Source: Lytechinus pictus
Taxonomy: Eukaryota
DNA length: 64,000 nucleotides
Assembly (NCBI RefSeq): GCF_037042905.1
Contig: NC_087251.1
Span: forward strand, 186,001 to 250,000
Direction of reading: 5' to 3'
Shown here: positions 4,981 through 61,199 of the stretch, piece by piece
Layout of the letters: each line of letters starts with the position of its first letter
Position numbering within the stretch: the stretch's first letter is position 1
Notes under the pieces: model-generated
Told to the model about the DNA's origin: nothing
The model's database searches: none
The model's input: only the letters and a program-made list of their open reading frames with translations
Translations under genes and position numbers: made by a program

Positions 4981-6580
4981 ACAACAGCGAATTTGGCCGA
5001 GACAATGATGTACAGGACTCTTCCCCAGCTGCATTAAACCGTATTTGTTTTGACGACATTTTCTGGAAACTGCATAGATCTGCATATTATTGATATGTAA
5101 CTTCTTCAGATTCTAACAGCCAGAACTAGGAGCCAAATGTGACAGCTTTCAAGTGTTTAAAATCAACATTACAGATGATTGCTCTGTGTGAGTAAGTGCT
5201 TTGATTTCTACAGTCCCATCTATACCATTTGATGTTATGAGCTTGCCTGGTTATGTGTGAATGAACTGGCTGGGGCCTAGATCTATGCCAGAACTCAATT
5301 CGTGATTCGTTTTACCTTGATTAACTTACTATTACTGCCTCTTCTTGCAAATTGACTATGTCTACTAAAACAGTCAAGGCTGTAATGGCTGAGCTTTTTG
5401 AAAAAGAAGAGTTTTTCCAGGCAATCTCAGATGGTGTGGAGAAAAAACTTGGTACTATTTTAGACAGGCTTACTCAACAAGAAACTTGTATTGCTGAATT
5501 GGAATCGCGTTGTAAAGTGAGGGATGTCAAGATACGTGACCTTGAGTTGAAACTGAGTAATTTGGAAACGAGATTTGATAAGATGGAAAGTGAGATGATG
5601 GATGTCCAGAATGGTAGAGACCAACGGGAGCAGCAGCTTGAATATGTGAAGAAAGAGCTTCAAAACCGAAATCAGGAAGTCGGTGACCTCAAACGCAGTA
5701 TGAATTCTTTGGAACAGTATTCGCGTCGAAATTGTGTGAGGATTTTTGGAGTCAAGGAAACGAATGGAGAGAATACTGATAAAATTGTTTGTGATGTTGC
5801 ACAACAAATCGGAGTAGATCTCGATGCAAGTGACATAGATCGCAGCCACCGTGTAGGGAAACCCCCAGCTGATAAGGCAAAGAGCAGGGGTATCATCGTA
5901 AAATCTTTAACCTAAAGACTCTGAAAATGCCTGATATATATGTATACCAATGTGCAATATTCATGTATTTATGTATCCACAAATTATTACCAACATCTAT
6001 TATTTCATATTTCCAACTGAACAGAAATATTCATGAATATTAAACTAGGCATTCCAATAATTTTCACTTTCCTTTAACAAAAACTTCAACCTACCAAAAT
6101 ACAATTTTTTATAAAGGTCCATTAATTTGGAATAAATTACCAATTACAATAAGACAGAGTCCAACGCTGAATACTTTTAAAAGAAAAATGAAATCTTTAC
6201 TATTACATAAGTACCTCTAAAATGTAACAGTTTGATATTTTAAATAAGAAATGTATGTCTGTGTGTTTGCGGGTGTTTGATTACGAATGGTGTATGTGTG
6301 TTGATGTTGATGTATGGGTGTTTGATTTAAATGTACTATTTTCAATTAATTTTACTTTGCAACTTTTAATCAACAATTCAATTTTTAAATCTTCTGATCT
6401 GTATGGAGATTGGCTTTTAATATAAGGCTCTGCCTTTCTGCCTCTCCTAATACTTTCATTTGTACATTTGTATTATTTGTTTTATATGTTTTCTTTATAC
6501 TCCTTTATATGTGTGTATATATCTACATTGTTATATGTTTTTTAATGAAAGTATTGAATAAATGAAATGAAATTAAATGA
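4981..6580 (+). mobile_element. Internally deleted LINE (L2/Crack-like): 5' UTR, partial ORF1, last codons of ORF2, 3' UTR and (GAAAT)n-like tail
   Basis: ORF 5352-5915 has a coiled coil plus LEQYSRRNCVRIFGV and DIDRSHRVG (L1-type ORF1 RRM); ~6100-6220 FYKGPLIWNKLP...FKRKMK; boundaries defined by the empty site in copy B. Confidence 0.85.
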
Positions 6581-6865
6581 AATATTTTTTTGAATGAATG
6601 GTGTTTCATTCTACGGGATTTTATAAAGTGTCATAATAGCAAGCTAAATCACAGGGGAAAACATCATGATCAAACCTGTTCTTAAAAATCTGTCAAAACA
6701 AAATATGTATCAATATACCATTTTCAACACTAATTTGTATCCATTTTGAAATAAAAAATGGCTGCCAGAGTTTCGGGTCTTGTATTATTGAAAAACATAA
6801 AGCATTTGACATGAATATCTATTTGAGTTTTTTTGCCTCTGTGTCCATCTGTGGTGAAAATGCCC

Positions 6866-8087
6866 CCCAGTACCTTCTCTCTATCCCACTCTCTCCTCCA
6901 TTCTTCTGATAGTATCAATGGTATTTACCCCAGTACATTCTCTCTATCCCACTCTCTCCTCTTTCTTCTGATAGTATCAGTAGTATTTACCCCAGTACCT
7001 TCTCTCTATCCCACTCTCTCCTCCATTCTTCTGATAGTATCAATGGTATTTACCCCAGTACCTTCTCTCTATCCCACTCCCTCCTCTTTCTTCTGATAGT
7101 ATCAGTAATTTTTACCCCAGTACCTTCTCTCTATCCCACTATCTCCTCCATTCTTCTGTTAGTGTCGGTGGTATTAACCCCAGTGCATTCTCTCTATCCC
7201 ACTCCCTCCTCTATTCTTCTGATAGTATCAGTGGTATTTACCCCAGTACATTATCTCTATCCCACTATCTCGTCCATTCTTCTGACAGTTTAACCCCAGT
7301 ACATTCTCTCTATCCCACTCTCTCCTCCATCTCCTGATAGTATCAGTGGTACATGTACTTACCCAGGTACCTTCTCTCTATCCCACTCTCTCCTCCATCT
7401 TCTGATAGTATCAGTGGTATTAACCCCATTACATTCTCTCTATCCCACTCTCTCCTCCATCTTCTGATAGTATCAGTGGTATTAACCCCAGTACATTCTC
7501 TCTATCCCACTCTCTCCTCCATCTTCTGATAGTATCAGTGGTACTTACCCAGGTACCTTCTCTCTATCCCACTCTCTCCTCCATCTTCTGATAGTATCAG
7601 TGGTATTAACCCCAGTACATTCTCTCTATCCCACTCTCTCCTCCATCTTCTGATAGTATCAGTGGTACTTACCCAGGTACCTTCTCTCTATCCCACTCTC
7701 TCCTCCATCTTCTGATAGTATCAGTGGTACTTACCCAGGTACATTCTCTCTATCCCACTCTCTCCTCCATCTTCTGATAGTATCAGTGGTATTAACCCCA
7801 GTACATTCTCTCTATCCCACTCTCTCCTCCATCTTCTGATAGTATCAGTGGTATTAACCCCAGTACATTCTCTCTATCCCACTCTCTCCTCCATCTTCTG
7901 ATAGTATCAGTGGTATTAACCCCAGTACATTCTCTCTATCCCACTCTCTCCTCCATCTTCTGATAGTATCAGTAGTATTTATCCCAGTACATTCTCCCTA
8001 ACCTACTCTCTCCTCCATCTTCTGATAGTATTAGTGGTACTTACCCAGGTATCTTCTCTCTATCCCACTCTCTCCTCCATTCTCCAG
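6866..8087. repeat. Minisatellite, 62-63-bp unit, ~19 copies, derived from exon end plus splice donor
   Basis: Unit CCCAGTACATTCTCTCTATCCCACTCTCTCCTCCATCTTCTGATAGTATCAGTGGTATTAAC; the last unit overlaps exon 8045-8217. Confidence 0.95.
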
Positions 8088-8217
8088 ATGATTCTTTCTG
8101 TCTTGACATCCTCTGCTGTTCTACTTCATCTCTCTCTTTCCTCCATACTTCATAATCCCTCCTTTCCTTGCCGGACATAGCCATTGACATCTCCATTTTG
8201 CTTCTGGGCGGACCATA
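8045..8217 (-). CDS. CCDC9: Host gene internal exon (173 nt, phase 0-2), conserved DUF4594-like core
   Basis: tttttttgttcag|TAT...GG|gtaagt; YGPPRSKMEMSMAMSGKERRDYEVWRKERDEVEQQRMSRQKESSGEWRREWDREK matches the CCDC9 pattern MTGRERxEYxxWKxERExIDxxRL...GxWRREWDxEK. Confidence 0.9.
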
Positions 8218-9674
8218 CTGAACAAAAAAATTTTAAAAGGAGATATAATTACATCAACATATCATTCTAATGTAACAAATATCATATTTTAAGCTATAGC
8301 CCTTTGCCTTTTCAAAAGACTTAGTATATTTTTCTACTGGCTTTAACTCAAGAAGTGTAGCATTTTGTGCAGTCAAAGAATCAATTCTACCAAGGGATCG
8401 TTTCATTAAAATTATGTTAAAGTTATGCATGTCTTTATGAATGATGGGTTACATCAAGCCAGGTGGGTTTATCGAATTCATTTTAAATCACATCTAATCA
8501 TGATTATGTTGATCAACATAATGCAGCTGATAGTGCAAAGCAAAGTATTTTCCACAAACAGAAGGACAGTCATACTTCTTTGAAAATCAGAATTACTATT
8601 GACCATGCATTTTGGCATTGCATATACATGTATGAATCATTTATAAATTTATGCACATCTTTATGAACTATATGCACAAACCCTTCCCTCTTCCTAGATA
8701 TTATATTTTAATGAGTGACAGGCATGTTGGAATTAAAAAAAAAAGCATTACGGACATTACAGACAAATTTGTCCACTTTCTTTAAGTGGTGGGGATCACA
8801 TGTTAGTGGAAATATTTTGTATTCATTTTACCTGAATTGTAAATAATTCACATAAAAAAATGTTGCCAAAGCATTATGATTTATTTTCTATTTTAGGGAT
8901 TGCCAATTTGAGGAATTTTTTAGGTGTAAACTGGCACTTTCTTAGATTACTGATTTTTCTATTTTACTGGAAGAAAAAATAATTATTTATGTCTGTAATC
9001 GAAAACTGATCTATAAATAACATTGCATTTCAAATTTCGACTTTGAATATCCAAAAATGTAATATAAGAGAAACGTTGTGGACATTACACTTTTTGTACA
9101 CTCGTGTAGCCATAGCATAACCTAACTATACACTAATAACCAACTTCTATTCTTATTGAAACTAATGTACATGTATATTATTCATCAAACATTCAATATG
9201 ACATTAAGAGCCATGATAGGATGCTTTTTCTTTCTCCTCATTTCAGTTTCCCAGTCCTGTACAAATTAATGCAGTCTTGAAAAGAGTCAGAAACTTTTCA
9301 GATATTACATTATACATTCTGCTTCCATGTCAGTTTCGAAGTAGATATAGTTTCTGTTAGTGATAGGTAGCTATTCTACACATGACTTTTCTTCCTCACT
9401 GTACACAAACATGAAAACCAAATGTGTGGATCTATGTATTTAAAAAAACATGCGCCATCAGTGCAATAAAAATTGAAACAGAACATACAATTTTATATTT
9501 TGCTATTGAAAGGAAATGTTCCAAATCGATGTTAAAGTGGTGTTTGTTACACAATCTGAGCAAATGATCACATATAATGATCAATCTAATCAAGCTATGA
9601 TCAAGAATTATAAAGCTTTATGTTATAAGGCCTTCGAAGCAAACTACCAAGTAAACCTCTAATATCTTTGAAAA

Positions 9675-10745
9675 TACACTTGCTGATTGCTTTAATTTAT
9701 TTTCAATGCTAAAGAGCATGTTTTTATTTGTCTCCTCACACTTAAGTGATTGCTCTAGTTTATTCCAATTCTAAAGAGGATGTTTTTTTGTCTCGTTACA
9801 CTTAACTGATTGCTCTATTTTATTTCCTATTCTAAAGAGGATGTTTATTTGTTGTCTCGTTACACTTAACTGATTGCTCTATTTTATTTCCTATTCTAAA
9901 GAGGATGTTTATTTGTTGTCTCGTTACACTTAACTGATTGCTCTATTTTATTTCCATTCTAAAGAGGGTGTTTACTTGTTGTCTCCTTACACTTAAGTGA
10001 TTGCTCTATTTTATTTCCAATGCTAAAGATGTTGTTTACCTGTTGTCTCCTTACACTTAACTGATTGCTTTAATTAATTTCCAATGCTCAAGAGGTTGCT
10101 TACTTGTCTCCTTACACTTAAGTGATTGCTCTATTTTATTTCCAATTCTAAAGAGGATGTTTATTTGTTGTCTCGTTACACTTAACTGATTGCTCTATCT
10201 TATTTCCAATTCTATAGAGGGTGTTTACTTGTTGTCTCCTTACACTTAAGTGATTGCTCTATTTTATTTCCAATGCTAAAGATGTTGTTTACCTGTTGTC
10301 TCCTTACACTTAACTGATTGCTTTAATTAATTTCCAATGCTCAAGAGGTTGCATACTTGTCTCCTTACACTTAGTGATTGCTCTATTCTATTTCCAATGC
10401 TAAAGATGTTACCTGTTGTCTCCTTACACTTAACTGATTGCTTTAATTAATTTCCAATGCTCAAGAGGTTGCTTACTTGTCTCATTACACTTAAGTGATT
10501 GCTCTTTTTTATTTCCAATGCCAAAGAAGTTGTTTACTTGTTGTTGTCTTACACTTAACTGATTGATTTAGTTTATTTCCAATACTGAAGAGGTTGTTTA
10601 ACTTATTGCTCTAGTTCATTTCCAATGCTACAGAGGTTGATTAACTGATTGCTCTAGTTTATTTCCAATACTAAAGAGGTTGTTTAACTGATTGCTTTAG
10701 TTTATTTCCAAAGCTAAATAGGTTGTTTACCTGCTGTCTCCTAGG
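9675..10745. repeat. Minisatellite, ~58-62-bp unit, ~17-19 diverged copies, derived from exon end plus splice donor
   Basis: Unit TTACACTTAACTGATTGCTCTATTTTATTTCCAATGCTAAAGAGGTTGTTTACCTGTTGTCTCC; the last unit overlaps the exon boundary at 10731. Confidence 0.93.
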
Positions 10746-10940
10746 AGGCCTGCCTCTACTTCTTGTAATGTTAGATCTGACATCATCCATAGTAGGTCCT
10801 CCCCAGTTCCTTGGATTCCTTCTGTTATTATCATGTTGGTCATGGTGTGGTACAGGTCCAAATCGTTGAGGATCATCTAGAAAGCCTTGTGATGACCGTG
10901 GGTGTTGGAGCTGACTAGCATCTTCATTCCCTGCTGCTTT
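10731..10940 (-). CDS. CCDC9: Host gene internal exon (210 nt, phase 0-0)
   Basis: ttctttctctgcactggcag|AAA...CAG|gtaaac; encodes FLDDPQR and RRNPRNWGGP motifs typical of CCDC9/CCDC9B; nearby alternative AG acceptors exist. Confidence 0.85.
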
Positions 10941-13662
10941 CTGCCAGTGCAGAGAAAGAATCACCAATTTATTTTATGTCATACACAAGTTGACCGCCTC
11001 TGGCAGTCTGGCCTGCATCAAGTGATTCAATATAGCAGCAGTGCTGACTTTGAAAACAACTATTGAATTATTATTTCATTTGACCTTGATCATGTGACAT
11101 AAGACTTGTGCAAGATGATGTGACATTTGATTACACTCGAATCCACATTTCATGAACTAGATCAATAAATGTTCAAGTAATGATGGCAATTAAAAAATTC
11201 CCTCAACATGGCCAGAGTTCACTGACCATAAATGAACTTTGACCTTAGTAACATGATCTAAAACTCAGAAGGATGTTTACTGATACTTGATTACTCTTAT
11301 GTCCCAAGTTTCATGAACTAGATCCATATACTTTCAAAGTTATGATATTTCAAAAACTTAACCTTGGTTAAGATTTTGTTGTTGACCCCAAATTACTTTT
11401 GACCTTGGGGTCATTCCAACTGGATTCACCCAGTGGTTGCACCCGACCCTTTCAGTTTTTGTTGTAAATTGGTACACATAAAATTCACCATGGCCCACGC
11501 ATAAAACAAAAAAATTAGTTCAATCGGTCCGTCGGTTTTCGTGCTACGGCCCGCCCTTTTCTCATTGTTTTGACAAAAATGGGCGCGACCTTCAACTTTC
11601 AATGGCCATTGCGTCGTAACGTGTTGACCAATTTTCACGAAACTGGTACCATTCAAAAGGAAATTCAGAGAGGAATCCAAAACATGCGTTAAATAATGTA
11701 TTGGAGCGATTTATAAGGTCATGACCTTTGACCTTTACTTTGACCTTGAGTTTGACCCCCGGACAAATAATTTTTATACTTGATTTTCGTGTATGTTAAT
11801 CATTAGTAATATTAACAAAATATATTAAAACCAATGATGATATTTTATTTCTTCACATTTTAAAACTCTTCCAAAGATACCAATTATCTGATCTGAAATT
11901 TCACTCTAGTCCCACATTCTGATATTCATGTTAGTAAAGTGTTTTCAGTACCATGATATATGATTTCTTCCAATCTTAAGTTACAGTATGCAAACAGATG
12001 AAAAGAAATTAAGCTTATCAGTTGATAAATGAAACATTAAACATTTATGCTTATGAATACATGTAGGTACCTGTTTAGGTATTTTGATATTGATATATAT
12101 AGGCAATATATAATAACTCAAAATCTGCTGGGAACTGCAATATCCTGCTTTCTAGTCAGCTGTACTCCCCAAAGTGAAAACATCCTTGAGATCCTTGAAG
12201 CATCAGCATTGGATACATTCGTTATAATGATGATGCTAGAGATGGATGATCAATTGGACAGATAGTATTGTATCTAGCTACCCAGCAGGTATCCTTTTTC
12301 ACTGCCTCCCCATTGAAAAAAAGACAGTATCTACATTTTGCATAAGTTGAGATATTAAGCATTTTGTGTTTTCCAAAGCTGCTCAATACTATTTTATTTC
12401 TTAGTATTCTTTAATCATCAAATTGTTGAGTATATGCCTATTTAAGGCTCCCTTTTTTTTTTTTTTTAGATATTGAAGAAATGTACCGTAGATAGGCCTA
12501 CTCTTGGAAAGTCGAAGCGAATGCTCGGTTTCTCCATGGAAAGATGCAGTACATGTATCTACAGATGGACCAAAATTCCATTCAGTTTTATTATCACTTG
12601 CTTCATTAACCATGAAATAATTTGTCATTGTGTATTTAAAGGGGAAAATAATACCTTAGACACACTGAGGGCACCCTGATAAAAATGAGTTTAATTAACA
12701 TGTTCTTCATCTGTGGGTACTGCATTTTTCCATGGGAAACTGAGTATTTGCTTCAAATCTACATGTACATTTACACAAATATCTCAAATCATAAAGACAA
12801 CACTTGTATGTTTGGCCTGAAATAGGCATTCTACAATTTGATGATAAAGGAATAATTGAGAAATAAAATAGTATGCAGTGACTTATAAAAATGTTAATAA
12901 TAATATCTTATCTTGTGCAAAATGTAGATACTGCATTTTGCCGATTACTTAAACGTTGCTATTCAGAAAGCAATTAGGAAAACTGGATGTGTCATGTGAA
13001 AAAAGTGGCTAACTGTCTACTCTTCTGAAAAAAAAATGAAAAAAAAGTCAGACACTGCGTTTTTCCATAGGGGTGCAGTGTAAAGATGGATAAATGTAAC
13101 TGCTGGATAGTTAGAAACAATATTATCTCTCCAATCGATCATCCATCTCTAACACCATCATCATCAAGAATGTATGATGCTTCAAGGATCTGAAGGATGT
13201 ATCCACTTTGGGGGAGTACAGCTGACTAGAAAGCAGGATATTGCAGTTCCCAGCAGTTTTCTAATAATTTTTCGGACATTACAAGGAGGCGTGGCTAAAA
13301 ATGTCGCTTTAGCTGACGTGGTAATTTCGGGAGGGGGCAAAAGCCAATTTCTAACAAGTTAGCATTCTTCTTCGTGGAGTCGATTGGAAAGCATCTTTCA
13401 TCTCAATTCACCTGTCTTGTGCAACATACTTCCTGTATTTTTGTTATCCGTTCGTTGAACTCTTTAGTTGTGATCCTTCTAATTGTCATTCTAACCCATT
13501 CATATATCTTAAAGAACGCTTCGCAGTTGAGAATTTATTCTTTTTATCTGGGAACATACCTGTATATTTGTGTTTATATCCGTTTGTTGGACTTTTGAGC
13601 TGTTAGGAGTCATAGTTTGCTCTAAGGACTTTTCAATTTCGCCACCCCTGCATTATTCAATC

Positions 13663-14704
13663 ATGCCCAAGGTTAAGCCAGGCAAAAAGTTAAGTCAGAG
13701 GAAGTCTACTCGTCGTTCGGTCGGAGATGCCGCCAGCCAGCCTTCTCCTGTCGACCTCGAGACAGACGTCGGCCAAGTTTTTAGTTCTACGCAGAGCCCA
13801 GCTGCTGGAAGTTCGGCGTCGACAACCAACGGTGAGTTCGGGACAATGGGGGGCTCCTGGCCTCTTGTGACTTCTCCACAAGGTCATTCCCCAAATTCAA
13901 TATCAAGCTCCCTCTTCTATCCCTCCTGCCCCTGTAGTTGAGGGGCCAGATATGCTTAGCTGCGTGTGTGATGATTTGGGTGGGGAGGTGCCTTCCAGTG
14001 TTAAGGAGAAGATTTGGAAAGGTGAATTTGTAGAGTTAGGTGGATTACTAAAAAGGGAAAGCTTAAGTGAGGAAAGTTCCCAGTTGCAGGCCTTCAGCCT
14101 TTGTGCCACCGGGTCCGCTTCAATGCTTCGCCCCCAAAGCAAGGCTCCGGTGATCGCCAGCATAGAACAGTGGACATCTGCGTTCCTTATTTACGCGTCT
14201 ATATACTTGGAGCGACACTGTATGCGTGCGCGCGAGCTCCTCAAGTATATGGATATCGTTCGCTCTATTGTGCGTTTTGGGGGTTTCAATTGGCGGGCCT
14301 ATGACATTCAATTTCGGTAACGTCAGGCCCGTCATCCACATCGTTCCTGGGCTGTCATAGACACCGAGCTATGGCTGACAGTAGCTTCGACGCCCGGTCG
14401 AGCAGCGTTTTCGTCTTTTGGGGGTAACCAGCCCTTTCGGCCATACGACCGGTCGTTTCGGCGAGGTAGTTTCCCATCCTCAGGATATGCCAATAGACAA
14501 GGGGCAATTCGGGCCCCTGGCGCCGCGCCTGCCCCATTCCGCTCCTCACCAGTCTGTTTCGCCTTTAATGCTGGGTCATGCCAACGCACCGCCTGCCGTT
14601 ATGCTCACCGGTGCGGAAAATGCTCCTCAGCAGCGCATGGCTCACACGCCTGCAACTCTGCCGCTGCAATTGCCAAACAGAAGCCTAGCTCCAACTCCAA
14701 TTAA
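13663..14704 (+). pseudogene. Ngaro gag-like ORF with frameshift and internal stop
   Basis: VKEKIWKGEFVEL, IEQWTSAFLIYASI, WRAYDIQFR*; C-terminal CFAFNAGSCQRTACRYAHRCGKCSSAAHGSHAC double zinc finger. Confidence 0.85.
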
Positions 14705-16240
14705 ACTTGGCAGCATGCTCCCATTTCTTAGACGGCACCATAATCAACATAATGCAGCTTTTCTGATTTCTGGTTTTAGGTTTGGTTTTTCATTGGGTTT
14801 CACAGGCGAGCGTCGCTCTGTGTTCTCGCGTAATTTGAAATCTGCTCGGGAGCATAGGGACATGCTGTTGGAGAAAGTTGGTAAGGAAGTTAGTTTAGGG
14901 AGAATGTCAGGTCCTTTCCAAGACCCGCCTTTCGATAACTTTCGCTGCTCCCCGGTAGGGCTCGTCCCCAAGCAAAATCCGGGAGAATTCCGTCTAATTC
15001 AGCATCTATCTTCTCCTCGGGGGGCTTCGGTTAATGATCACATTGATTCCGATTTATGTTCCGTGAATTACACTTCATTTAACAAGGCGGTTGATCTCGT
15101 TGCTCGCTTGTGCTCTCATGGGAAAAACCGATATAAAATCCGCTTTTCGCTTACTACCAGTGAATCCTTCCGATTTTGACCTTCTGGGGTTTTGCATTGA
15201 TGGCGCGTATTACTTTGATAAATGCTTGCCAATGGGCTGCTCAATTTCATGTGCCCATTTTGAGCGTTTTAGCACTTTTCTTGAGTCATGTTGCCGTGAA
15301 ATTGCGAATTCAGAGCAAATTTTGCATTATTTGGATGATTTCTTTTTCGTTGGCGCAACACGGCAGGAATGTCGTTCCTTGATGTATCATTTTAAGGCAA
15401 TGTGCGAGATTTTTGGCGTCCCGATAGCGGAGGAGAAGACTGAGGGGCCCGTTCCCACTATCATATTTTTAGGGCTTGAAATCGACGCGGCTGAGCAGAG
15501 AGTTCGGGTACCCAAGGAGAAAGTAGACGTGTTACAGGCAATGCTCATTGATTTTAAGAAAGATAAGCTCTCGTTGCGGCAGTTGCAGTCGCTAATTGGC
15601 AGCCTTGATTTCGTGTGTAAAGCCGTGGCTCCCGGAAGAGCCTTCCTAAGGAGACTTATCGATCTTACTAAAGGGGTCCGCACCCCAAACCACCGGATAA
15701 GGCTTTCACGTGGCGCGAAAGAGGACATGCAATGCAGGCCTGGCTTACGTTTCTGTCACAGTTATGTTTTCACACTCAACATGGGTAACTATTTTCAGTT
15801 CTTTACTGACGCTGCGGGTAGCAATGGCTTTGGTATATCCTTCCAGGATAAGTGGGCTCAAGGGAGATGGCCAGCTGAAATACTGGAGAAAAATTATTCC
15901 ATCGCTTTTCTAGAGCTTTTCCCAATAGTAGTCGGTATACGTATGTGGGGGGCTCTTCTAGCTAATTCTAAGGTCTTATTTTGGTCAGATAATCAAACAG
16001 TTGTTCATGTTGTTAATTCCTTAACTTCGAAATGTCCTAGTGTAATGAAACTTGTTCGTTTGCTTGTAGTTCTTTGTTTGGAACATAATATTATGTTCAA
16101 AGCACGTTACGTGCCGGGCTCTCGCAATGAAAAGGCTGATGCCCTCTCTCGTTTTCAGATGGACAGGTTTCACAGGTTAGCACCAGGCGCAGATCTGGCT
16201 GGCAGCAAGCTTCCCGCCCATCTTTGGAGCAGCTTCATAG
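14683..16240 (+). pseudogene. Ngaro reverse transcriptase / RNase H, frameshifted near 15110
   Basis: SPVGLVPK, FRLIQHLS, KTDIKSAFR, LPMG, HYLDDF; RNase H TDAA, FLEL, SDN, ADALSR. Confidence 0.92.
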
Positions 16241-16970
16241 AGAGAGAGAGCATCTGTTGTTTTCTTCGCGGGCGCCCGGCACTCATCATACTTATAGGAA
16301 CGCTTGGTCTGTGTTTAAGCAGTTTCGGCTGCAATATCATTATGATATAAGTACATGTATACGTCCTGACATTGAGCAGGTCGCTCAATTTATTGCTTAT
16401 CTATCCTGGAATGGGTATGCGGGGGCAACAATAAATACATATATATCAGGCCTGGCTTTTACGATGCAAACATTGGGTTGGCCTGATGTGACTGACGCGT
16501 TTGTAATCCGGCGGCTGGTAGACGGGTGCAGGCGGAAAAATGCTCGCCGTGATACCCGGTGTCCCATAACCCTGCCTATTCTCAAATCCATCCTAAATTC
16601 ATGCGTTAATACGTATGATTTGGCATTGTTTCGGGCTGCCTTTCTAATCGCTTTCTTTGGTTTTCTTCGAGTAGGAGAGTTCACGTCTCGATCTAGGCAT
16701 GAACCCGTTCCTTTATCAGAAAAAGATGTTATTATTCAAGGGATGGGTAATCAAGCAAAATTGCGCATTGTGATTGCGAAGTCTAAAACAGATCAAACTG
16801 GACGTGGATGCACGATTTTAATTCCACAGAATGTTGTTTCGTATTTATGCCCACTTCGCGCTGTAAATGATTACCTCGCTCTGCGGAGCTCGGTCGGCTC
16901 TGCCTTTTTTCGTCTCTCTCTCTCTCTCGCTTGTTGCCATGGTGACGGCGATGGTTATCTTACCCGTTAA
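16224..16970 (+). pseudogene. Tyrosine recombinase, C-terminally truncated
   Basis: RCPIT, AFFGFLRVGE, SKTDQ, LCP motifs; HxxR and catalytic Tyr region not found. Confidence 0.9.
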
Positions 16971-19839
16971 TAGTTCCATGGGCGCAGGCAGACTTGCTCG
17001 CCCACTGTTAGTAGATTGTGGTCTTTGCTACACTCATCGTGTTTATGGTAACTATGTACCCCCCCTTTAGAATGTACAATTGGTGCCGCTGTTTCTTTCC
17101 TTTTCTCTCTTCCATGTGCAGTTATTTGGAGTCTCAACGTGGGTTGTGTCAGCATTCCACGGAATCGTACGAGAGGAAGTGGACAATTCACGTTTCGCTG
17201 ACGCGGGCAGTCCCGCATTAGTTGGGGGCGGGCCCTCACTACTCGGCACGTGGCCGGGTCCTAAAACTCAATACATCCGCGAACAGGAGGACACTTGATT
17301 TCTTTGTCGCGGAGCGAAATCACTAGAGTAACAGCTGTTTTACCTCCGTCGAGCACTCGCTGGCTCGGACGTCGCGAACGGTTGGAACTTTTTTATGAGC
17401 AGATGTTATGACCTGAATACCTTATCCAGAACTCACACGTGGTATCATCAGATCTCAAGTCCTTACTACAAACTTCACTATTTAGTTACTAAGCCCCGCC
17501 CCCCCCCCCCCCCCCCCGCCTCTCCTTTATCTTAGGGCTCTTCGCAAGTGGACTGAATGAGCATGAATCCTCCTAGATGGTTTAATTGGGCGTCCCTGTT
17601 CGTTTTATGCACCCCCCCCCTTTTCCCAGCTTCTTAGCGTGGACCTTGTGAATACAGCATGGTTTGAACTATTGGCATCATATTGCGTTGTGGCGGCGGG
17701 CTGACGATGAGTCATCCCGTTTGGCGGCATTCCATTTTTTGCCACAACACATTATGATTCTTCACTTATTTTGGGCTTCTTGAGATAATATTTTTCATTT
17801 ATTTAGACCAATTTCGTATATTCCACTCCTCAGGTTATAATGTGAACGGGGCTTGGTTCGTCACCCGATTTGGATGAGGCCACCAGCGAATTCCATTTCG
17901 GACCGAACATTAACGTTGCCTCGTTCACATTCTAGTTCAGGGCCGTTGGTGGGGCTTCTGAGCACTAGTTTCTGTTTTAAAAGTTTTCCTGCATAAGCTC
18001 GTGTTGCAAACGGGAATCTTTGCTTCGTAGCTTTGCAGATGGAATTTTACGTTGCCCACATTTGGCCAACATGACAAACTGGTGTCTTTGTCATGAATGT
18101 GGAGATAGGTTTAATAACTTTAATTTTTCGCATATGACACATCTCAGGAGGCTTTACGTTTATATTATTATGTTTTGATTGTTGCATTATATTATGTTGG
18201 CTTTATTTGACAACACATCATTTTACATTTCGGTATACATCATTTGGAAGATGCTTTTCAGAAACAATTTTTATTAAACTCCACGGAAACTGCATTTACT
18301 CGCCTCTCGTGTATTTTGTCTGGGTTGAGATAATGAGTTATTATATATTGCCCAATATGTTATATATTGCCCAATATTATATATTGCCCAATATCAAAAT
18401 ACCTATTCATGAGCATAAATGTTTAATGTTTCATTTATCAACTGATAAGCTTAATTTCTTTTCATCTGTTTGCATACTGTAACTTAAAATGGGAAGAAAT
18501 CATATATCATGGGACTGGTAAACACTTTACTAACATGAATATCAGTATGTGTGACTAGAGTGAAATTTCAGATGAGATAATTGGTATCTTTGGAAGAGTT
18601 TTAAAATGTGAAGAAATAAAATATCATCATTGGTTTTAATATATTTTGTTCATATCATACTAATGATAAACATACACGAAAATCAAGTAAAAAAATTATT
18701 TGTCCGGGGGTCAAACTCAAGGTCAAAGTAAAAGTCAAAGGTCATGACCTTATAAATTGCTCCAATACATTATTTGACGCATGTTTTGGATTCCTCTCTG
18801 AATTTCCTTTGAATGGTACCAGTTTCGTGAAAATTGGTCAACACGTTACGGCGCAATGGCCATTGAAAGTTGAAGGTCACGCCCATTTTTGTCAAAACAA
18901 TGAGAAAAGGGCGGGCCGTAGCACGAGAACCGACCGACCGATTGGACTAATTTTTTTTGTTTTGTGCGTGGGCCATGGTGAATTTTATGTGTACCAAATT
19001 ACAACGAATTCTGAGAGGGTCGGGTGCAAAATTGCACATTCATTAGGTGAATTGGCATGGAATGACCCCTTGGTCATGTGACTTGAAACTCGCAAAAGGA
19101 TGTTCAGTGATACTTGATTACTCTTGATGTCCAAGTTTTATGAACTAGACCAATACACTTACAGAGATATGATGGTAATTTAACAAATACCCCCAACATG
19201 GCCAAAGTTCATTGACCTTAAATGACCTTTGACCTTGGTCATGTGACCTAAAACTCACACAGGGTATTCAGTGATACTTGATTACCCTTATGTCCAAGTT
19301 TCAAGAATCAGATTCATACATTTTCGAAGTTATGATGGTAATTCAACGGATACCCCCAATTCGACCAAAGTTCATTGACCCTAAATGACCTTTGACCTTG
19401 GTCATGTGATGTGAAACTCAAGCAGGATGTTCAGTAATTCTTGATTAACCGTATGTCCAAGTTTCATGAACTAGGTCCATATATTTTCTAAGTTATGATG
19501 ACATTTCAAAAACTTAACCTTAGGTTAAGATTTTGATGTTGATTCCCTCAACATGGTCTAAGTTCATTGACCCTAAATGACCTTTGACCCAATTCATGTG
19601 ACCTAAAACTCAGGCAGGATGTTCAGTAATACTTGATTAACCTTATGGCCAAGTTTCATGAACTAGGTCCATATACATTCTAAGTCATGCTATCATTTCA
19701 AAAACTTAACCTTCGGTTAAGATTTGGTATTGACGTCGCCGCCATCGAAAAAAAAAAAAGCCATCGAAAAAGCGGCGCCTATAGTCTCACTCTGCTATGC
19801 AGGTGAGGCAAAAAATGACAATTTACAGTAAATAAATGA

Positions 19840-27600: not shown

Positions 27601-28900
27601 TCCAGAAATTATTAATAATAAAATTAATAAGTCAGGTAATTAACAGGACCACCTTCTTAACATGAGTTATGAGAACAAAGTTAAGAAGCTCAAGTGAGAA
27701 ATTACACGAGCGGGCAGGGCTCGACATGACGTTAATTAATTAACAAGTGGAATGCCTCTGGCCGTCTCACCTGCATCACGCGATTCAATATAGCAGCAGT
27801 GCTGAGTTTGAAAACTACTATAACTCGCACAAGATGTTCAGTGATACTTGGTTACTCTTATTTCCACGTTTTATGAACTAGACCAATACACTTATAGAGA
27901 TATGATGGCAATTCAACAAATACCCCCAACGTGGCCAAAGTTCTTTGACCTTACATGACCTTTGACCTTGATCATGTGACCTGAAACTTGCACAGGATGT
28001 TCAGTAATACTTGATTACTATTATGTCCAAGTTTCATGAATCAGATCCATAAACTTTCAAAGTTATGATGGTAATTCAACAGATACCCCCAATTCGGCCA
28101 AAGTTCATTGACCCTAAATGACCTTTGACCTTGGTCATGTGACGTGAAACTCATGCAGGATGTTCAGTGATACTTGATTAACCTTATGTATAAGTTTCAT
28201 GAACTAGGTCCATATATTTTCTAAGTTATGATGACATTTCAAAAACTTAACCTTAGGTTAAGATTTTGATGTTGATTCCCCCAACATGGTCTAAGTTCAT
28301 TGACCCTAAATGACCTTTGACCTTGGTCATGTGACATGAAACTCAGGCAGGATGTTCAGTAATACTTGATTAACCTTATGGCCAAGTTTCATGAACTAGG
28401 TCCATATACTTTCTAAGTTATGCTGTCATTTCAAAAACTTAACCTCAGGTTAAGATTTGGTGTTGACGCCGCCGTCGCCGTCGCCGCCGCCGCCGCCGTC
28501 GCCGCCGCCGCCGTCGCCGTCGGAAAAGCGGCGCCTATAGTCTCACTCTGCTATGCAGGTGAGACAAAAACAGAAAACGTCTAAGTCCAAGACAAAGAGC
28601 AGGATCAGCTAAGAAAAAAAACACAAGGATTTTTTTTTTTTTTTTTTTGTTCTTTTTGACAAAGGTCGAAAAAGAAAACAAGTAAAAATATAGCTAAATA
28701 TGTCAACAACGGACACTTTAAAAGGGGCAAAGTGGGAGTGTACTTAGCTATACGTCTGATCACGGCGGCAGGCGAAAGTAAAAGAGGAAATGGACGCCTA
28801 TTTGCGTGATGATCTTGGGATAGTGCGTGCGTAGGGAGATGCTACGCGCGCACAGGAAAAACTGTGTACTTTTATTCGGCGTGCAAGTTAATCGTAATGA
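23250..28900 (-). mobile_element. Highly decayed DIRS1-like retroelement, copy 1 (limits approximate)
   Basis: GC-rich; minus-strand remnants RISH*IVGCV, SMPTSWA, SSSNS..YRL in the order expected for a DIRS1 YR C-terminus (~24850-25560); paralogous to ~47390-49740. Confidence 0.6.
27742..28570 (-). mobile_element. Complete HINE/DINE-1-like element copy 2
   Basis: Subterminal IR GTCTCACCTGCAT (27764-76) / ATGCAGGTGAGAC (28553-65), adjacent partial hairpin, (GCC)n microsatellite, ~180-bp core repeats, A-run flanks. Confidence 0.8.
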
Positions 28901-32561: not shown

Positions 32562-34893
32562 GGGCATTTTCACCACAGATGGACACAGAGGCAAAAAAAT
32601 CAAGTTGATATTCATGTCAAATGCTTTATGTTTTTTAATAAAACAAGACCTGAAGTTTCTGAGACAAAATTTTTTTCCGACTCTGGCAGCCATTTTTATT
32701 TCAAAATGGCTGCCAAAGTATGGATACAAATTAGTGTTGAAAATAGTATATTGATACATATTTTGTTTTGACAGATTTTTAAAGAACAGGTTTGATCATG
32801 ATGTTTTTGCCTGTGATTTAGCTTGCTATTATAACACTTTTTAAAATCCCATAGAAAGAAACACCAGTAATTCATTCATCTGATAAAAAAACATTGATGA
32901 AGTATGTGATATGGTGTGTAATGTCAGTTACCAAAAACATGAACTTTTTTTTCTCATTTCCTGGAAAAGAGGATATATTATATGAAACTTGGTAGATTTC
33001 CTCTCTAGGTAACACCTTTCCCTTCTACACCAAAATTAAAGATTACCAATTAACAATGAAGCCATAGGGTACCATTAAATATATGTAATGTCAGTTACCA
33101 AGTAGAAAATGTAATGTCAGTTACCGAGATGTAATGTCAGTTACCATGATAAAATGTTGGTTACCAATATTAAAATGCAAATATGTGGTCAATTTTATGG
33201 TGAAGAAATATTGTATACTTGTTATTAAAGTCTTTCACTTTAAAAGTCACACCAGAAGGAGCTTGCTATTGACTTTTAAAAGGTATAGTTCACAAGGAAT
33301 ACTATATGAAATTATGAAGGAAGTTGCATTCCCATCGTGCAAAAAAAATTACTATGAAATTGTTTTGTACATGCACTTACCAAGTACCTAATTGTTTGTA
33401 TCAGACAATTTTTTATTTGGCTTTCGGGGGGGGGGGGGGGGGTAGGGGGTCCTTTTCCCAACCTATTGCCTAAATCTGCAACATTTTTTAGCTTAACATT
33501 GTGATGAAGGGGATTTCCAGGGTCCCTTTTTTAGTTTCTAGGATTCTTTTGAGCATTGCCTCGATAAAAGTAAATTCCTGGTTTTTATACCTGTTAGTAG
33601 TGTGGATGTGTGATACAATTTTGTATTGGTTTACAAGTATAGATGAAAAGTGAAATTTGACAGTTCTGATCAATGTTGCATGGATCTACGTACTAAAACT
33701 GTTTTTTTTTCTAATTTACAAATAGTTCAGTTTCAGTTTAGAAGCTGAAGTTTATTTTTTGTTGACAGCTTAAAAAAGAAATTAGCAAAGAAAATGATTA
33801 AACAAATTATGAAGAGAATTGAAATCCGACAGATATGAACAAGCATTGCTTGCACTGACCAGAATAGAAATCAATGAAACTACATGGCTGCATGAGATTC
33901 GGGGGAGGGGTACGTGTAGCCTAGGGGAGGAGACCCTTATTCATTTTGCCTTTTTTGAGGGGAGGGGGAGGTTGGAGAAGGAAAAGGTTTAAAAAGTCAA
34001 TATAAAACTGATGAATAAATTATGGGTGTATAGTCAGAAAAGCCATGTGTACAGTCAATGCAATATTAAATTACTATAGGAAAACATGTAGCTACTATGA
34101 CCCCACCCCCCTCCCAAGTAAGTAAAACATACATTTCTTATCTTTTGATAATTAAAAATGTGAAGTATTAAACTATTATGAAACTTTTATGATTTTAAAA
34201 AGCCTTACATATAAGTACCAAAATAATTATGCCTTTGAAAATCATATAGCACTGGTAAATGTTAATGTGTATTGTCAGTTACCGACAAGTAATGATAAAA
34301 ATGTTCAAATCAAAGAAAGGAATTAAGAAAAAGAAAAAAAAATTCATTGAAATGTTCCTAGAAACTCGGGTATACTTCCACATCAAGCTCACTTTCATGT
34401 GAAGCCCTGCACAGAAGATACAATGCAATGATTCCACACATTTGACTTCCATGTGTTATCTCTATGGCAAATTAAGTGTAATGTCAGTTACCGTAATGTC
34501 AGTTACCAGCATGGTTGTGGAAAAATTATCATAGCCCCCAAAAGACAAAAACAAATTGTTTAATATTTTGACACATCTTAATCTAGTAACGGAGGTATAT
34601 TTACATATTCAAATTATTACTCTATCTACTCAGGGACATGAGATATTTTAATTTTAATGAACACCCTGAAATTGCATGTCCTTTTGCGTAATGTCAGTTA
34701 CCGACACATTTTTGCTTGCTGATGCGTACAAAAATGTGGTTACATAGGAAAACTTAGTATCAGAGTATACAGCAAGGTTCACTTTATTAACTCTATCAAA
34801 AGCAAACTCCCATCATTTGTTGTTTTAGAGATACACACAATGAAAGGTGTGAAAACATTGTGCCGTGTAATGTCAGTTACCGTGAAAATGCCC
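32562..34893 (+). mobile_element. Complete non-autonomous DNA transposon (Sola2-like), copy B
   Basis: 12-bp TIR GGGCATTTTCAC/GTGAAAATGCCC; 4-bp TSD ATAA (32558-61, 34894-97); many GTAATGTCAGTTACC motifs. Confidence 0.85.
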
Positions 34894-38913: not shown

Positions 38914-40694
38914 CAGTGTGTTTCTAAAAAAAGTAAACCCAACTTCAACGGCAAATTTTCAGAAAACTAAAAAATATTTACACATTATTTTTTCATGGTT
39001 AGATAGTCCAATAAGTCCTCTGTCCAATTACATCACTTAGGTTATCTAACTCTCATGCATGACTGAGCATGATTCAACTTAGTGAATGGGTGTGAAATCA
39101 TCACTGTGGCAAGTTAGAATTGCACTTTGATTGGAAGTTCATCAATCAAATGACATAGGAAATGTCTGATTTCTTACGAGCATAGCTTAGGGATGTGTAC
39201 CCTCGACATGACCGCCATTCCTTTCGATACAACGCCTCCTCATGTCCCTGACAGCACGCCTGATCATTCCCTGATCTTGTCGTAATCGGTTCACCTCACC
39301 TGTTATCCGTTGCCTCAGCTCCTGAATTGTGGCCGGTGGGGTTTGGAACACTTTTCCTTCAAGAGACCCCCAAAGAAAGAAATCGCATGGTGTCAGATCT
39401 GGTGAACGTACAGGCCACTCAACTGGGAAATGAAGAGCAATGATGCGATTGCCAAAGAGTTCAGTCAAATGATTCCTCACAGCAATAAGTCTGTGGGCTG
39501 GGGCCCCATCCTGAGCCCACCAGGCCCTGCGGAATGCTCCACATCGTTGTCGGGGGAAGATCTGTTCCATCTCAGGCACAATAAAATTGTTCAGCATGTC
39601 AAGGTACGCCCTGCCATTGATGTTGCCTTCAAAAAAGTAAGATCCCACCAATGAACCATCGCCACAAAGACCAATCCAGACACTCACTTTCTCCCTGCTC
39701 ATGTTCTTATTAAAAGCATATCCCGGTGGATGATGGAGTTCAGCATACTCGTGCTCATTGTGGGTGTTTACCATTCTATCCATGGAAAACGTTGCTTCAT
39801 CCCCGATGGTAAAAAACTGGAGGAACTGTCGATCTCGGTTGCACCGGTTCACAAACCATTAAATTGAAGTCGTCTGGGAAAATCAGCTGGTAGAAGTTGG
39901 TGCTGAACATGAACATGATATGGATGGAGATGCAAATCCAGTCTTGCTATTCTGTTAAAAGTTGCGCGTGGTATTCCAGTATCATTTCTCCTGGTGCTTA
40001 TGCGTGGGTTGGCTTGGATGGCCTCTCTTACCACTTGGATGTTTTCAGCAGACCTCCCAGTTCGTCTGTGGCCAGAGTGTCCTTTATTCCTGTTCAAACT
40101 GGTTCCGTGATTAGCATACTTTCTCACATTGTACCAGATGGCTCTTTTTGTTGGAGGCTGCCTCTCGGGGAACTGCACCCGAAAAGCCTCTTGAACTTCC
40201 ACAAAACTTCTTGTTTCCTGGTATCGAGTTACCAGGAATACTCTCTGCTCAATTGTCAACTGTACTATGTTTGGAAAGCATGTGAAGTGTGCCTGTATCA
40301 GGAACAACCTTTGCTGAATTTGTTATGTAATCATAGGCCTAACATGTGACAAAAATTTAACTTCAAATAGGCCCTGAATGCATGACAATAGCAAGAAATA
40401 ACTTGCCAAAGTGATTATTTAATCATAGGCCTAACATGTGACAAACATTTAACTTCAAATAGGCCTTGAATGCATGACAATAACAAGAAATTACTTGCCA
40501 CAGTGATGATTTGACACCAGTTCACTAAGTTGAATCATGCTCAGTCATGCATGAGAGTTAGATAACCTAAGTGATATAATAGGACAGAGGACTTATTGGA
40601 CTTATCTAACCATGCAAAAATAATGTGTAAATATTTTTTAGTTTTCTGAAAATTTGCCGTTGAAGTTGGGTATACTTTTTTTAGAGACACGCTG
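38914..40694 (-). mobile_element. Tc1/mariner transposon, DD41D (rosa/Visitor) type
   Basis: TA TSD; ~200-bp TIRs CAGTGTGTTTCTAAAAAAAGTA; transposase in two frames. Confidence 0.93.
39187..40270 (-). pseudogene. DD41D transposase, frameshifted near 39850
   Basis: N-terminal HTH (LTIEQRVFLV...FRVQFP); IGDEATF, QDGAPAH, WPVRSPDLTPCDFFLWG; 41 residues between the 2nd and 3rd Asp. Confidence 0.9.
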
Positions 40695-43600
40695 TATAAT
40701 GGTATCTCTGAGATAGAAAGGCGCAGGTTGGTGATAATGGTGTCAAAATGCACAGATTCTTACCAGAATATCAAATAGAATAAAATTAATGACCTAGAAT
40801 GCACATTCACCTATAAAATTCAAGGTCAAAGCCTTTCAAAAGGTCAAGGACCTTTTTTACATTACATGTATATACCATACCGTATAATGGTTTCTCTGAG
40901 ATGATAAGGTACATGCCGGTGATCTTGGTGTCAAAATGTACAGATTCTTACAAGAAGATCAAATAAAATAAACTTAAGTACCTAGAATGCACATTCACCA
41001 ATAAAATTCAAGGTCAAAGCTTTTCAAAGGTCAATGACCTATTTACATTATATACCATATACTGTATAATGGTATCCCTGAGATGAAAAAGCACAGGTTG
41101 GTGATCATGGTGTCAAAATGCACAGATTCTTACCAGAAGATCAAATAGAATAAAATTAAGTACCTAGAATGCACATTCATGCATAAAATTTAAGGCCAAA
41201 GGTCAATGACCTTTTATACTATATATACCATATTATATAATTGTATCTCTAAGATAAAACGGTGCAGGTTGGTGTTCTTGGTGTCAAAACACGCATATTC
41301 TTACAGGAAGATAGAATAAAATTAAGCATCGAGAATGCACATTCACCCATAAAATTCAAGGACAAAGTCCTTTTAAACATTAGATAATAATAATGGTATC
41401 TATGAGATAAAACACCGCGGCAGGTTGGTGATCTTGGTGCCAAAATCCAAAGACTTGTACAAGAAGATTAAACAACACTAAAATAAGTATAAAGAATAAA
41501 CTTTCACCCTTGAAATCCTAGATCAGAGGAAATATACAATCTATATGACATAAAAATAACCAAAAACAATATCTTTTGTGTTCATATTTTATATCTGAAT
41601 AATGTAAATAACCATGGCTAATTTGTAATGAAAACATGGAGGTTTCATAATTTCGGTCTGAAATAATGAAGGCCATGGAGAATGTATTTAGGGGTCAGAG
41701 GTCAATGAGCCCTTTCCAAAATATCAGTGGAAATTAAGTAAAAAAAGTTGATGACAAAATAACACTTTTTCATATACTGCGATGCATTGCCAAAAGCACT
41801 GAAAAAATAAATGAAATCAAGTATATAATTTGAAATGATTTTTATCTTAAGTAGCAGCATTTAATGCATCATTATATCTAAATCAAGGTTGTCGTGTCTT
41901 TTCTCTCCAGCGATAGGCCACTCACCTCAATGCTATAATAAATAGTATAAACTATTAGCTTAATCTTCTGAAAATGGATAGGACAGGTCTAACTCTCATG
42001 TCACAGCTAGCATCATCTGAGAGCATTTCCATACAGCAGAGGGATGATGATGATGATGAAATGAAGGCCATCATTAGAGCTGCAGCTTCTGTCATACATG
42101 TAGTGAATTACATTATATATCAACTTCAACAAAGGTGAATTCCCGTATTATTATTAATTACCTTTCATCAGTTCATTGCGAGCTGCCAGAATCTCTTGTG
42201 ATGCTAATGCTGCAAGACAAAACTTCATCTGCTCTCTGCCGTACGTCACCCATGATGCTATTTCTACTAGGTATCAGTTTGTACAAGGATCATGTTTTTG
42301 GTCCAGAACAACCGATTGTTATCATGCACAAATTAGGCATATAACAATGAAATTCAAAAGGAGATAATAGCTTACAAGTACACATCCATCGACCTAACAA
42401 AACTCCTACAGCACCACTTCCAGTTCTTGAGAATCAAGCTGTGCAATTATCAGTAATAATATAGATCCTGGTCTGATATCCCTTGACAGAATGTAAGGCT
42501 TTCATTGAATGGGCCAGATCAAAGTCTTGAAAATGTCAGAAGGTTTTCAAGAGTTCAATTACTCTTTGCTGAAGTTGAGACACTTAACTTCATCTATGAC
42601 AAAAGCTGCTGCTCTAATGATTGCCTTATTTTAATTCTTCGTCATTGTCCCTGGCTATATGAAAATGTTCTCGGATGATGCTTGCCATAAGAGTTAGGCC
42701 TATCCTTTCCATTTACAGATTAAGTTATAGTGTTATAGTATTGATTGTAGCATTTGAGGTTAGTGACCTATCGCTACAGAGAAATTGGTACCTTGATTTA
42801 GATTTATAAAATGCATATCTAAATGCTGCTACTTTAGGTAACTTCACCATTGTCACCATTTCAAATTATATCACACATGATTTTTTTACACTTTTGTCAA
42901 TGCATTACAGTATGTTATATTAAAGAAAAAGTGCTATTTGATCCAATTTTACCTCGAACTTGTATTTTGACATCATCATTGGTCAAGGATTCAACTATTA
43001 AATATGTGTTCTTTTTCCACGCAGGTCAGTCTTTTTCCCATCAGAATCACTATACCTACATGCCACAATCACGTTATATCGACCTATTTACTTAAATTCC
43101 CTGACGTTATTGACATAGTTGATTGACCTTTAACTCCTGAATATATTTTCCATGGCCATTTTTATCCTTATTTCAGAGTGAAATTATTAGACTTCCAAGT
43201 TTTCATTACAAATAGTTATCTTTCTTTCTATTATTCACAAATAAAATGTGAATATAATGGATTAATTTCTTTTTTGGGGGAATCATGCATGGATATATAA
43301 ATATTTATCAACTTTTGACCTTTGACTTTGGATATTGGATTATTCTGTATGATTATTTTGAGTCTTTTTTATCTTCAAAATCACCAACATGCAGCGTTTT
43401 ATCTTAGAGATACCTTTATACGATATATAGCCTATGTGAAAAGGTCACTGACCTTTGACCTTGAACTTTATGGATTAGTATGCATTCTAGGTGATTAACT
43501 TTATCTTATTTGACCTTCCTGTAAGAATCTGGGAATTTTTATACAACGATCACCAACCTGTGCCGTTTCATCTCAGAGATACTATTATACAGTATGATAC

Positions 43601-55146: not shown

Positions 55147-55278
55147 CTGTGATTTATCGTCCCATGCCGTTCTGACACTCCTTCCATCATTGCCTCCACC
55201 TCTTCCTCTTCCTCTACCTCTACCTCTTCCTCTGCCACGCCCGCCTTGTCCTTGCTCTCCCATTGGTCCTCCAGATCC
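55147..55278 (-). CDS. CCDC9: Host gene internal exon (132 nt, phase 0-0), RG-rich segment of CCDC9-family protein
   Basis: Minus strand ttgactgcag|GGA...CAG|gttcgt; translates GSGGPMGEQGQGGRGRGRGRGRGRGRGGGNDGRSVRTAWDDKSQ; splices in frame to the 29035 exon; the RG run followed by D-x-KS resembles vertebrate CCDC9 as I recall it. Confidence 0.8.
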
Positions 55279-60533: not shown

Positions 60534-61199
60534 TAAATTTGATATATGATTCTCCATTTTTATGATTTTCATTATAGTTCTACTTTAATCATTATTATTA
60601 AAACAAAAGCAGAAAAAGCTTATTAATCATCATGAAACAGAAAAGATTGTGAAACATGAATGGTGGACAACATGTATTTAAAATCAAACAGCTGATGTGA
60701 ACTTGTCTTCATAAGATGCTGAACAATATGTGGAGACATTTATAATAAATGCTCTTCACACTACTTCAAGGAGCCACAATGCAAATTGTAAGGTTCAACA
60801 GGCTTGTCATCAGATTGTAAAGGTCAATATTAGAGTATAACTATGAGTGGAGGTAGGAATAATAGTAATGTTATATAACCAAAATGAGGGTAGATGCATG
60901 AAGGATGGATGGAGGGGTGTATACCTCACCATGCATTGGATTATGTACCTTGTGACGAGGGCTCTCCACACCCAGAGAGCAATCATTGGGGAACGTAACT
61001 ATCAAAGTCTATAGAGAAATACATGTAGTAACAGTGGAATAACCACAAACAGGAAGAAAGGATAAATAAAGGTATAAGTAGTACATTAAATGAAAGGGAA
61101 AATATTGGAAAAATGAGAATTTGGTATCATGGCCAGACTTAATTACGTAGTGGCATTGTTCTCTGGGATACAGAGCTGCTGTACCATCCATCAAATGCA

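Follow-up and report, generated by a model that had tools for sequence, protein, structure and literature searches.

A minisatellite built from an exon end and its 5′ splice site in a sea-urchin PDZ + DUF4594 gene: a likely neutral junction-spanning array

When the end of an exon, its 5′ splice site and the start of the following intron are repeated many times behind the true splice site, are the additional donors used by the cell, or are they passengers of a tandem amplification? This question is raised by a minisatellite, here called array 1, that directly follows one exon of a sea-urchin gene on the minus strand of the DNA analysed (a stretch of 64,000 nucleotides, referred to as the window).

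Five exons of the host gene were mapped in the window, all of them on the minus strand:

8045..8217, minus strand: exon B, 173 nt, ending in phase 2; supported by PF15266, protein identity and RNA reads spliced at both ends
10731..10940, minus strand: exon A, which precedes exon B, 210 nt, phase 0, donor CAG/GTAAAC; 66% identical to residues 458-539 of the S. purpuratus protein P0001
28955..29035, minus strand: a further upstream exon, free of junction arrays
55147..55278, minus strand: a further upstream exon, free of junction arrays, its limits deduced from the sequence
60925..61008, minus strand: a further upstream exon, free of junction arrays

Exon B matched the Pfam family DUF4594 (PF15266) with an E value of 3.7e-12 and 47.3 bits, the gathering cut-off being 27, and was 93% identical to residues 539-597 of P0001, a 1049-aa PDZ + DUF4594 protein of S. 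purpuratus (Strongylocentrotus purpuratus) and the sole hit among 6 candidates in a search for longer proteins. On this protein similarity, the host is identified as a sea-urchin PDZ + DUF4594 gene. We take DUF4594 to mark the CCDC9 family and the host gene to be CCDC9-like; a literature search for the term DUF4594 found no paper. The exon after exon B was not found within the 64-kb window, and the intron downstream of exon B must therefore be longer than 8 kb.

Tandem Repeats Finder placed array 1 at 6865-8080, with a period of 62, 19.6 copies, 88% matches and a score of 1852, the top score among the arrays of the window with a period below 100. The array, the true donor and the element that borders the array at its distal end are as follows:

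6865..8080, minus strand: array 1, a 62-63-nt minisatellite, each unit consisting of exon end, donor and intron start
8039..8047, minus strand: authentic 5′ splice site TGG/GTAAGT (GT at 8044-8043), where RNA reads leave the DNA
6591..6865, minus strand: interspersed repeat, 275 nt, 82% identical over 315 columns to 32562-32874

On the minus strand, 20 anchors were found, namely the end of exon B itself (u0) and 19 more units, most of them 62-63 nt long, with u11 (68 nt) and u12 (53 nt) as exceptions. Columns -34 to -1 of the unit correspond to the end of exon B and the columns from +1 onward to the start of the intron, with an exonic share of about 35-45 nt. The repeat unit thus straddles the authentic exon-intron boundary of the host gene, a junction that is backed by RNA reads. 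Outside the arrays, only chance matches of 11-12 nt to the units of array 1 were found in the 64-kb window, and within this window array 1 consists of local, head-to-tail, minisatellite-sized units. Unit 19 stops at its donor position, where the interspersed repeat starts, which the first-pass annotation had not noted, and both copies of that repeat (6591-6865 and 32562-32874) open with the same motif. The repeat is about 300 nt in length, and its end coincides exactly with the donor position of unit 19; its insertion probably cut the distal end of array 1. A weak tblastn extension had raised the sequence behind unit 19 as a candidate for the next exon, which was rejected because this sequence is the interspersed repeat and the RNA joins elsewhere.

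Within the array, four units carry a pseudo-donor that is identical in sequence to the true donor:

7729..7737, minus strand: pseudo-donor of unit 5, +1 at 7734
7667..7675, minus strand: pseudo-donor of unit 6, +1 at 7672
7543..7551, minus strand: pseudo-donor of unit 8, +1 at 7548
7357..7365, minus strand: pseudo-donor of unit 11, +1 at 7362

All four match the true donor from -3 to +6, each is preceded by the same 34 exonic bases except for one or two, and the nearest lies 310 nt from the true donor. The 18 complete pseudo-donors comprised GTAAGT (4), GTTAAT (7), GTAAAT (4), GTTAAA (1), GTAAAA (1) and ATAAAT (1). GT was retained in 17 of the 18 complete units and the full donor in 4 of them, the GT having been lost in unit 1; the G at +5 was gone in 14/18 units and the A at +3 in 8/18. 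Compared with the donor consensus, the true donor matched 7 of 9 positions and most units matched 4-6 of 9. Read-through past the true donor meets an in-frame TAA at 8043-8041. The first-pass annotation of this DNA, made from the sequence alone, had described units of some 36 exonic and 25 intronic nucleotides repeated about 19 times directly past the true donor at 8044, intact donor copies near 7734, 7672, 7548 and 7362, GTAAAT or GTTAAT in most other units, and immediate truncation of the protein upon read-through. Each of these statements of fact on array 1 was borne out: the division of the unit is about right, the four positions are exact, and the two degenerate forms account for 4 and 7 of the 18 units, respectively.

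A lack of excess conservation at the donor positions among units had been named there as one result that would count against a function. No such excess was found. Across the 18 complete units, the majority base was held at 0.88 in the donor columns (-3 to +6) and 0.94 in the other 36 columns, and identity to the exon was 0.76 in the donor columns versus 0.89 in the others. These differences were non-significant (P 0.08 and 0.10), and both trends run against excess conservation; the opposite candidate, that donor columns are less conserved than others, was rejected on the same values (P 0.08-0.10). Since the units are related by descent, the column counts are non-independent events. When the 13 distinct unit types were considered, the variant rate was 0.56 in donor and other columns alike; +3 and +5 were among the most variable columns, and the survival of GT (17/18) was no better than that of neighbouring columns. 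A purging of the donors nearest to the true one was considered as well and rejected: P was 0.33 for the absence of all four intact copies from the first 4 of 18 units, and 0.32 for the corresponding test in a second array, described below.

To see which donor transcripts use, raw reads of four RNA runs (X19-X22) were aligned to positions 7964-9745 only. X19-X21 represent organism A, the best-matching one, for which no differences from the exon were listed (identity was 99% or above in 11 of the 12 X21 reads), and X22 represents organism B, a relative that differs at 5 exon positions and may lack array 1. Sampling covered about 6% of each organism A run and 25% of X22 and yielded 10 (X19), 9 (X20), 12 (X21) and 23 (X22) aligned reads. 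The results showed loose read ends at 8044 in 8 reads of X21 and 12 reads of X22, that is, in 20 of the 20 listed junction reads, so that splicing at the authentic site is regular at this low depth. These loose ends translate as D-S-W-D-D-H-R-G-G, which is the continuation of the S. purpuratus protein. No junction was listed among the 10 aligned reads of X19. The junction between exon A and exon B was seen in 4 reads of X20 and 5 reads of X22 as loose ends at the acceptor; as these ends represent the end of exon A with an exon-specific base, exon A is likewise spliced at its true donor. Over 7964-8023 (unit 1), depth was 0 in all four runs, and over the adjoining end of exon B it was about 11.5 in X21 and 13.8 in X22. 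Because any transcript spliced from a distal donor must contain unit 1, the zero depth there bears on distal use as well. The aligned stretch also resembles the 100 nt that precede 7734, 7672, 7548 and 7362 (86, 89, 85 and 84% matching, respectively). The upper bound on distal-donor use is 31% in organism A (0/8) and 14% in both organisms (0/20), figures that come from libraries low in depth and with NMD unblocked, in which NMD would deplete a distal-donor isoform. No premature-stop isoform was seen in the 8 + 12 junction reads of these libraries.

Besides, 7 reads of X19 and 4 of X20 matched a 42-nt intronic patch at 8400-8441 at about 90% and were set aside. They have loose ends on both sides and an orientation opposite to the gene, and probably stem from another transcript or repeat.

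Splicing factors often autoregulate via NMD, and array 1 could be conceived as such a switch: use of a distal donor would bring the stop at 8043 into the transcript and lead to its degradation, and the amount of a CCDC9-like, possibly EJC-associated protein would depend on how many donors are intact. The four donors identical to the true one and the immediate read-through stop, which would precede the new junction by more than 300 nt, agree with this idea. What makes it worth testing is the co-elution of human CCDC9 with the exon junction complex (PMC8111494); in addition, pseudo-donors are used in 6-16 and CBS (PMC1557585) and in ABCA7 (PMC5954066). These reported cases involve the nearest one or two copies, whereas the nearest copies are degenerate here, u1 being without its GT. 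The link of this DUF4594 gene to CCDC9, moreover, is putative. Together with the weakening of 14 of the 18 donors, the lack of excess donor conservation, the absence of reads over unit 1 in 4/4 runs and the placement of all 20 listed junction reads at 8044, this leaves the switch improbable. The earlier suggestion of competing or decoy donors, or of an NMD switch, is thus not supported by the junction reads and the unit 1 depth, both at low depth, although a rare isoform degraded by NMD may exist.

We consider it most probable, at roughly 80%, that array 1 arose by tandem amplification across an exon-intron boundary, as in the so-called mirage minisatellites, and is likely neutral. Neutrality is suggested by the observed transcripts, in which splicing takes place at the first donor and the copies are discarded as part of the intron. 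A single duplication across the boundary would have left exon B and its donor intact and added only intron; unequal crossing-over or slippage may then have expanded the array and homogenised its middle, after which most copies would have drifted to weaker donors and the interspersed repeat would have removed the distal end. In the reads, at low depth, the spliceosome takes the first donor. By analogy with human F7, the upstream-most functional donor would be expected to beat identical downstream copies, and distance would help the first donor here, with the nearest intact copy 310 nt away. All five mirage features that were looked for were found, namely a unit spanning the boundary, a local array, partial retention of the splice signals, regular splicing, and a concerted middle with diverged ends. 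Of the options named by the first-pass annotation, its last one, neutral slippage, fits best.

The history of the array is partly recorded in its units. Likeness was 95.6% among units 2-12, 87.6% among units 13-18 and 86.9% between unit 1 and units 2-12, and the exon end was 79% alike to the units. From this sequence pattern, the middle of array 1 is read as homogenised and its ends as older. At column -8 (8052, minus strand), G stands in 18 of 18 complete units and A in the exon, which argues against any current homogenisation of array 1 with the exon. In the reads of organisms A and B, the exon letter was the only one listed at this site. The exon codon here encodes Ile and that of S. purpuratus Val, which is fitted by the base G of the units; the array may thus preserve an ancestral exon base. 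As the simplest reading, the array would have been founded before the change in the exon, perhaps before the split of A and B, an alternative being a change in the founding unit. A search of representative proteins returned mainly PDZ proteins, and among the proteins compared the Ile/Val site is alignable only in P0001-P0010 and P0015, which form the S. purpuratus cluster, so that the ancestral state rests on a single outgroup.

The variation among units also bears on whether array 1, or its copy number, could be an assembly artefact. None of the listed runs contains half of the sampled words of the stretch, and the intron has no RNA coverage, both of which leave room for an error. On the other hand, the array shows 13 distinct unit types among 18, shared and nested substitutions, indels (in u11 and u12), ends that have diverged and, distally, an inserted repeat. 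Read stutter or contig overlap would not yield such variation, and the chance of an artefact is judged to be very small.

Directly behind exon A, a second array was found, which the first-pass annotation had missed and which is new in this analysis:

9675..10733, minus strand: array 2, likewise a minisatellite derived from a junction, immediately following exon A

Array 2 consists of three 43-nt units followed by 14 units of 60-64 nt, the longer ones containing a donor-like site between roughly 12 nt from the end of exon A and the start of the intron. Two of its units, at 10292 and 10039, repeat the true donor CAG/GTAAAC. It holds 16 AATAAA and 4 ATTAAA in 1056 nt, which gives a density of A(A/T)TAAA of 18.9 per kb versus 2.2 per kb in the window, or about nine times as many, and its first AATAAA lies only about 20 nt past the true donor of exon A. 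In the reads seen, exon A is still joined to exon B despite this AATAAA-rich array.

These hexamers are relevant to another proposal, in which the donor copies load U1 snRNP and thereby suppress premature polyadenylation in a long intron (telescripting). The intron downstream of exon B, at more than 8 kb, and the retention of GT in 17/18 units would suit it, as would array 2, where donor-like sites are coupled with the high hexamer density. Yet the hexamer of array 2 simply belongs to the duplicated start of the intron, most units of array 1 match only 4-6 of 9 positions of the donor consensus versus 7 for the true donor, array 1 contains no AATAAA or ATTAAA, and the density in the intron past it, 2.0 per kb, stays at the background level. 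The U1-mediated protection from premature polyadenylation suggested by the first-pass annotation is not supported, and only a very small chance is assigned to it.

The presence of two junction arrays in one gene leads to the question of their origin. Echoes of the junction were found at 2 of the 5 donors (13 and 7 copies) and at 0 of the 5 acceptors of the gene in the window, and for at least two of the nine longer arrays to start on one of five donors P was 0.004 under random placement. Tandem duplication may accordingly start at splice junctions much more frequently than at random intron sites, owing to a mutational bias linked to transcription or splicing, a view that is compatible with neutrality; the amphioxus paper deems the phenomenon possibly general (PMC3087553). 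As the window was chosen for array 1, P was also taken for array 2 conditional on array 1, and was about 0.07. Furthermore, 6.5% of 1500 random positions in the window have at least 5 echoes, since repeats are common in it. Array 2 is suggestive only of junction arrays arising at non-random places, and we hold a splice-linked origin to be conceivable but tentative, with the odds somewhat against it.

If the bolder readings of both arrays were combined, the gene would possess an allele-dependent dosage dial, in which the distal donors of array 1 direct a share of transcripts to NMD, the donors and AATAAA of array 2 set a U1-dependent rate of premature polyadenylation, and both arrays stem from a duplication process linked to splice sites that is unusually active in this sea urchin. 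Were it true, the dial would occupy two consecutive introns of a likely exon-junction-complex partner gene; taken jointly, these propositions are highly improbable.

Several other elements were observed in the window. A 196-aa open frame with a coiled coil lies at 5325-5912 on the plus strand, antisense in the intron behind array 1; presumably it is a fragment resembling a retrotransposon ORF1, and a search against Pfam gave only sub-threshold coiled-coil matches. In the intron upstream of exon A, frames at about 13800-17300 on the plus strand resemble, by eye, gag, reverse transcriptase and tyrosine recombinase, and are similar to pieces of a DIRS-type retrotransposon. The same intron contains a pair of inverted repeats at 12121-12448 and 12815-13260, 81% identical over 209 columns and 75% over 131 columns and spaced by about 0.4-1.1 kb. 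Dispersed elements with internal repeats of 163/192 nt and 184/188 nt were found at 19068-19725, 27822-28466, 51795-52203, 40692-41367 and 43453-44709; they are probably transposon-borne satellites and lie away from the exon boundaries of this gene.

Array 1 is a further case of the junction-spanning minisatellites already described, and by itself it matters little beyond adding one more. A report of such arrays in echinoderms was not found in the open-access literature searched. The array offers a natural setting in which to study how 5′ splice sites are chosen outside mammals, as four intact donors are apparently ignored, and it touches the question of how mirages arise; the remaining interest lies in why arrays sit on splice junctions and in the AATAAA-rich array 2.

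The closest likeness is found in amphioxus. As described in PMC3087553, the mirage minisatellites of the globin genes BflGb6 and BflGb9 have units of 10-160 bp, keep the splice signals in many but not all units, leave splicing undisturbed and show a homogenised middle with diverged ends, their mechanism of origin being called unclear. Adh3 and troponin C are mentioned as further amphioxus cases by citing papers (PMC3087553, PMC3902484), and in the PGBD5 gene two exons have such repeats, of 60 and 108 bp (PMC3902484). Allele length polymorphism is given as one of the features of junction-spanning minisatellites in PMC3087553 and PMC1557585. The sea-urchin array shares with these cases tandem units spanning a boundary, a unit length (62-63 nt) within 10-160 bp, partial signal retention, a homogenised middle with diverged ends, normal splicing and, as in PGBD5, more than one junction per gene. 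It differs in its host, an echinoderm, and in its 19 extra copies compared with 2-7 in the globin and PGBD5 cases.

Human minisatellites provide the second comparison (PMC1557585 and PMC5954066). In the 37-bp VNTR of F7 intron 7, the upstream-most functional donor excludes identical downstream copies, and in F7, LAMIN B2 and PDGF intron 4 the first donor alone is used, whereas in 6-16 and CBS intron 13 two pseudo-donors are also used (PMC1557585); no such use was seen at array 1. As in F7, the first monomer of array 1 lies across the boundary, the intron contains further copies of the donor, and splicing takes the upstream-most one. The F7 units, however, contain 4 exonic bases and identical donors, compared with about 35-45 exonic bases and 14/18 degenerate donors here, and the evidence for donor scanning comes from mammalian cells and not from sea urchins. 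In the 25-bp VNTR of ABCA7 intron 18, retention of one unit gives an NMD target, independent of VNTR length (PMC5954066). This VNTR resembles array 1 in beginning at a donor and in that splicing from a downstream copy yields, or at array 1 would yield, a transcript with a premature stop that NMD can target; in contrast to array 1, its unit starts at GT and use of the pseudo-donor has been observed, while no such isoform was seen here.
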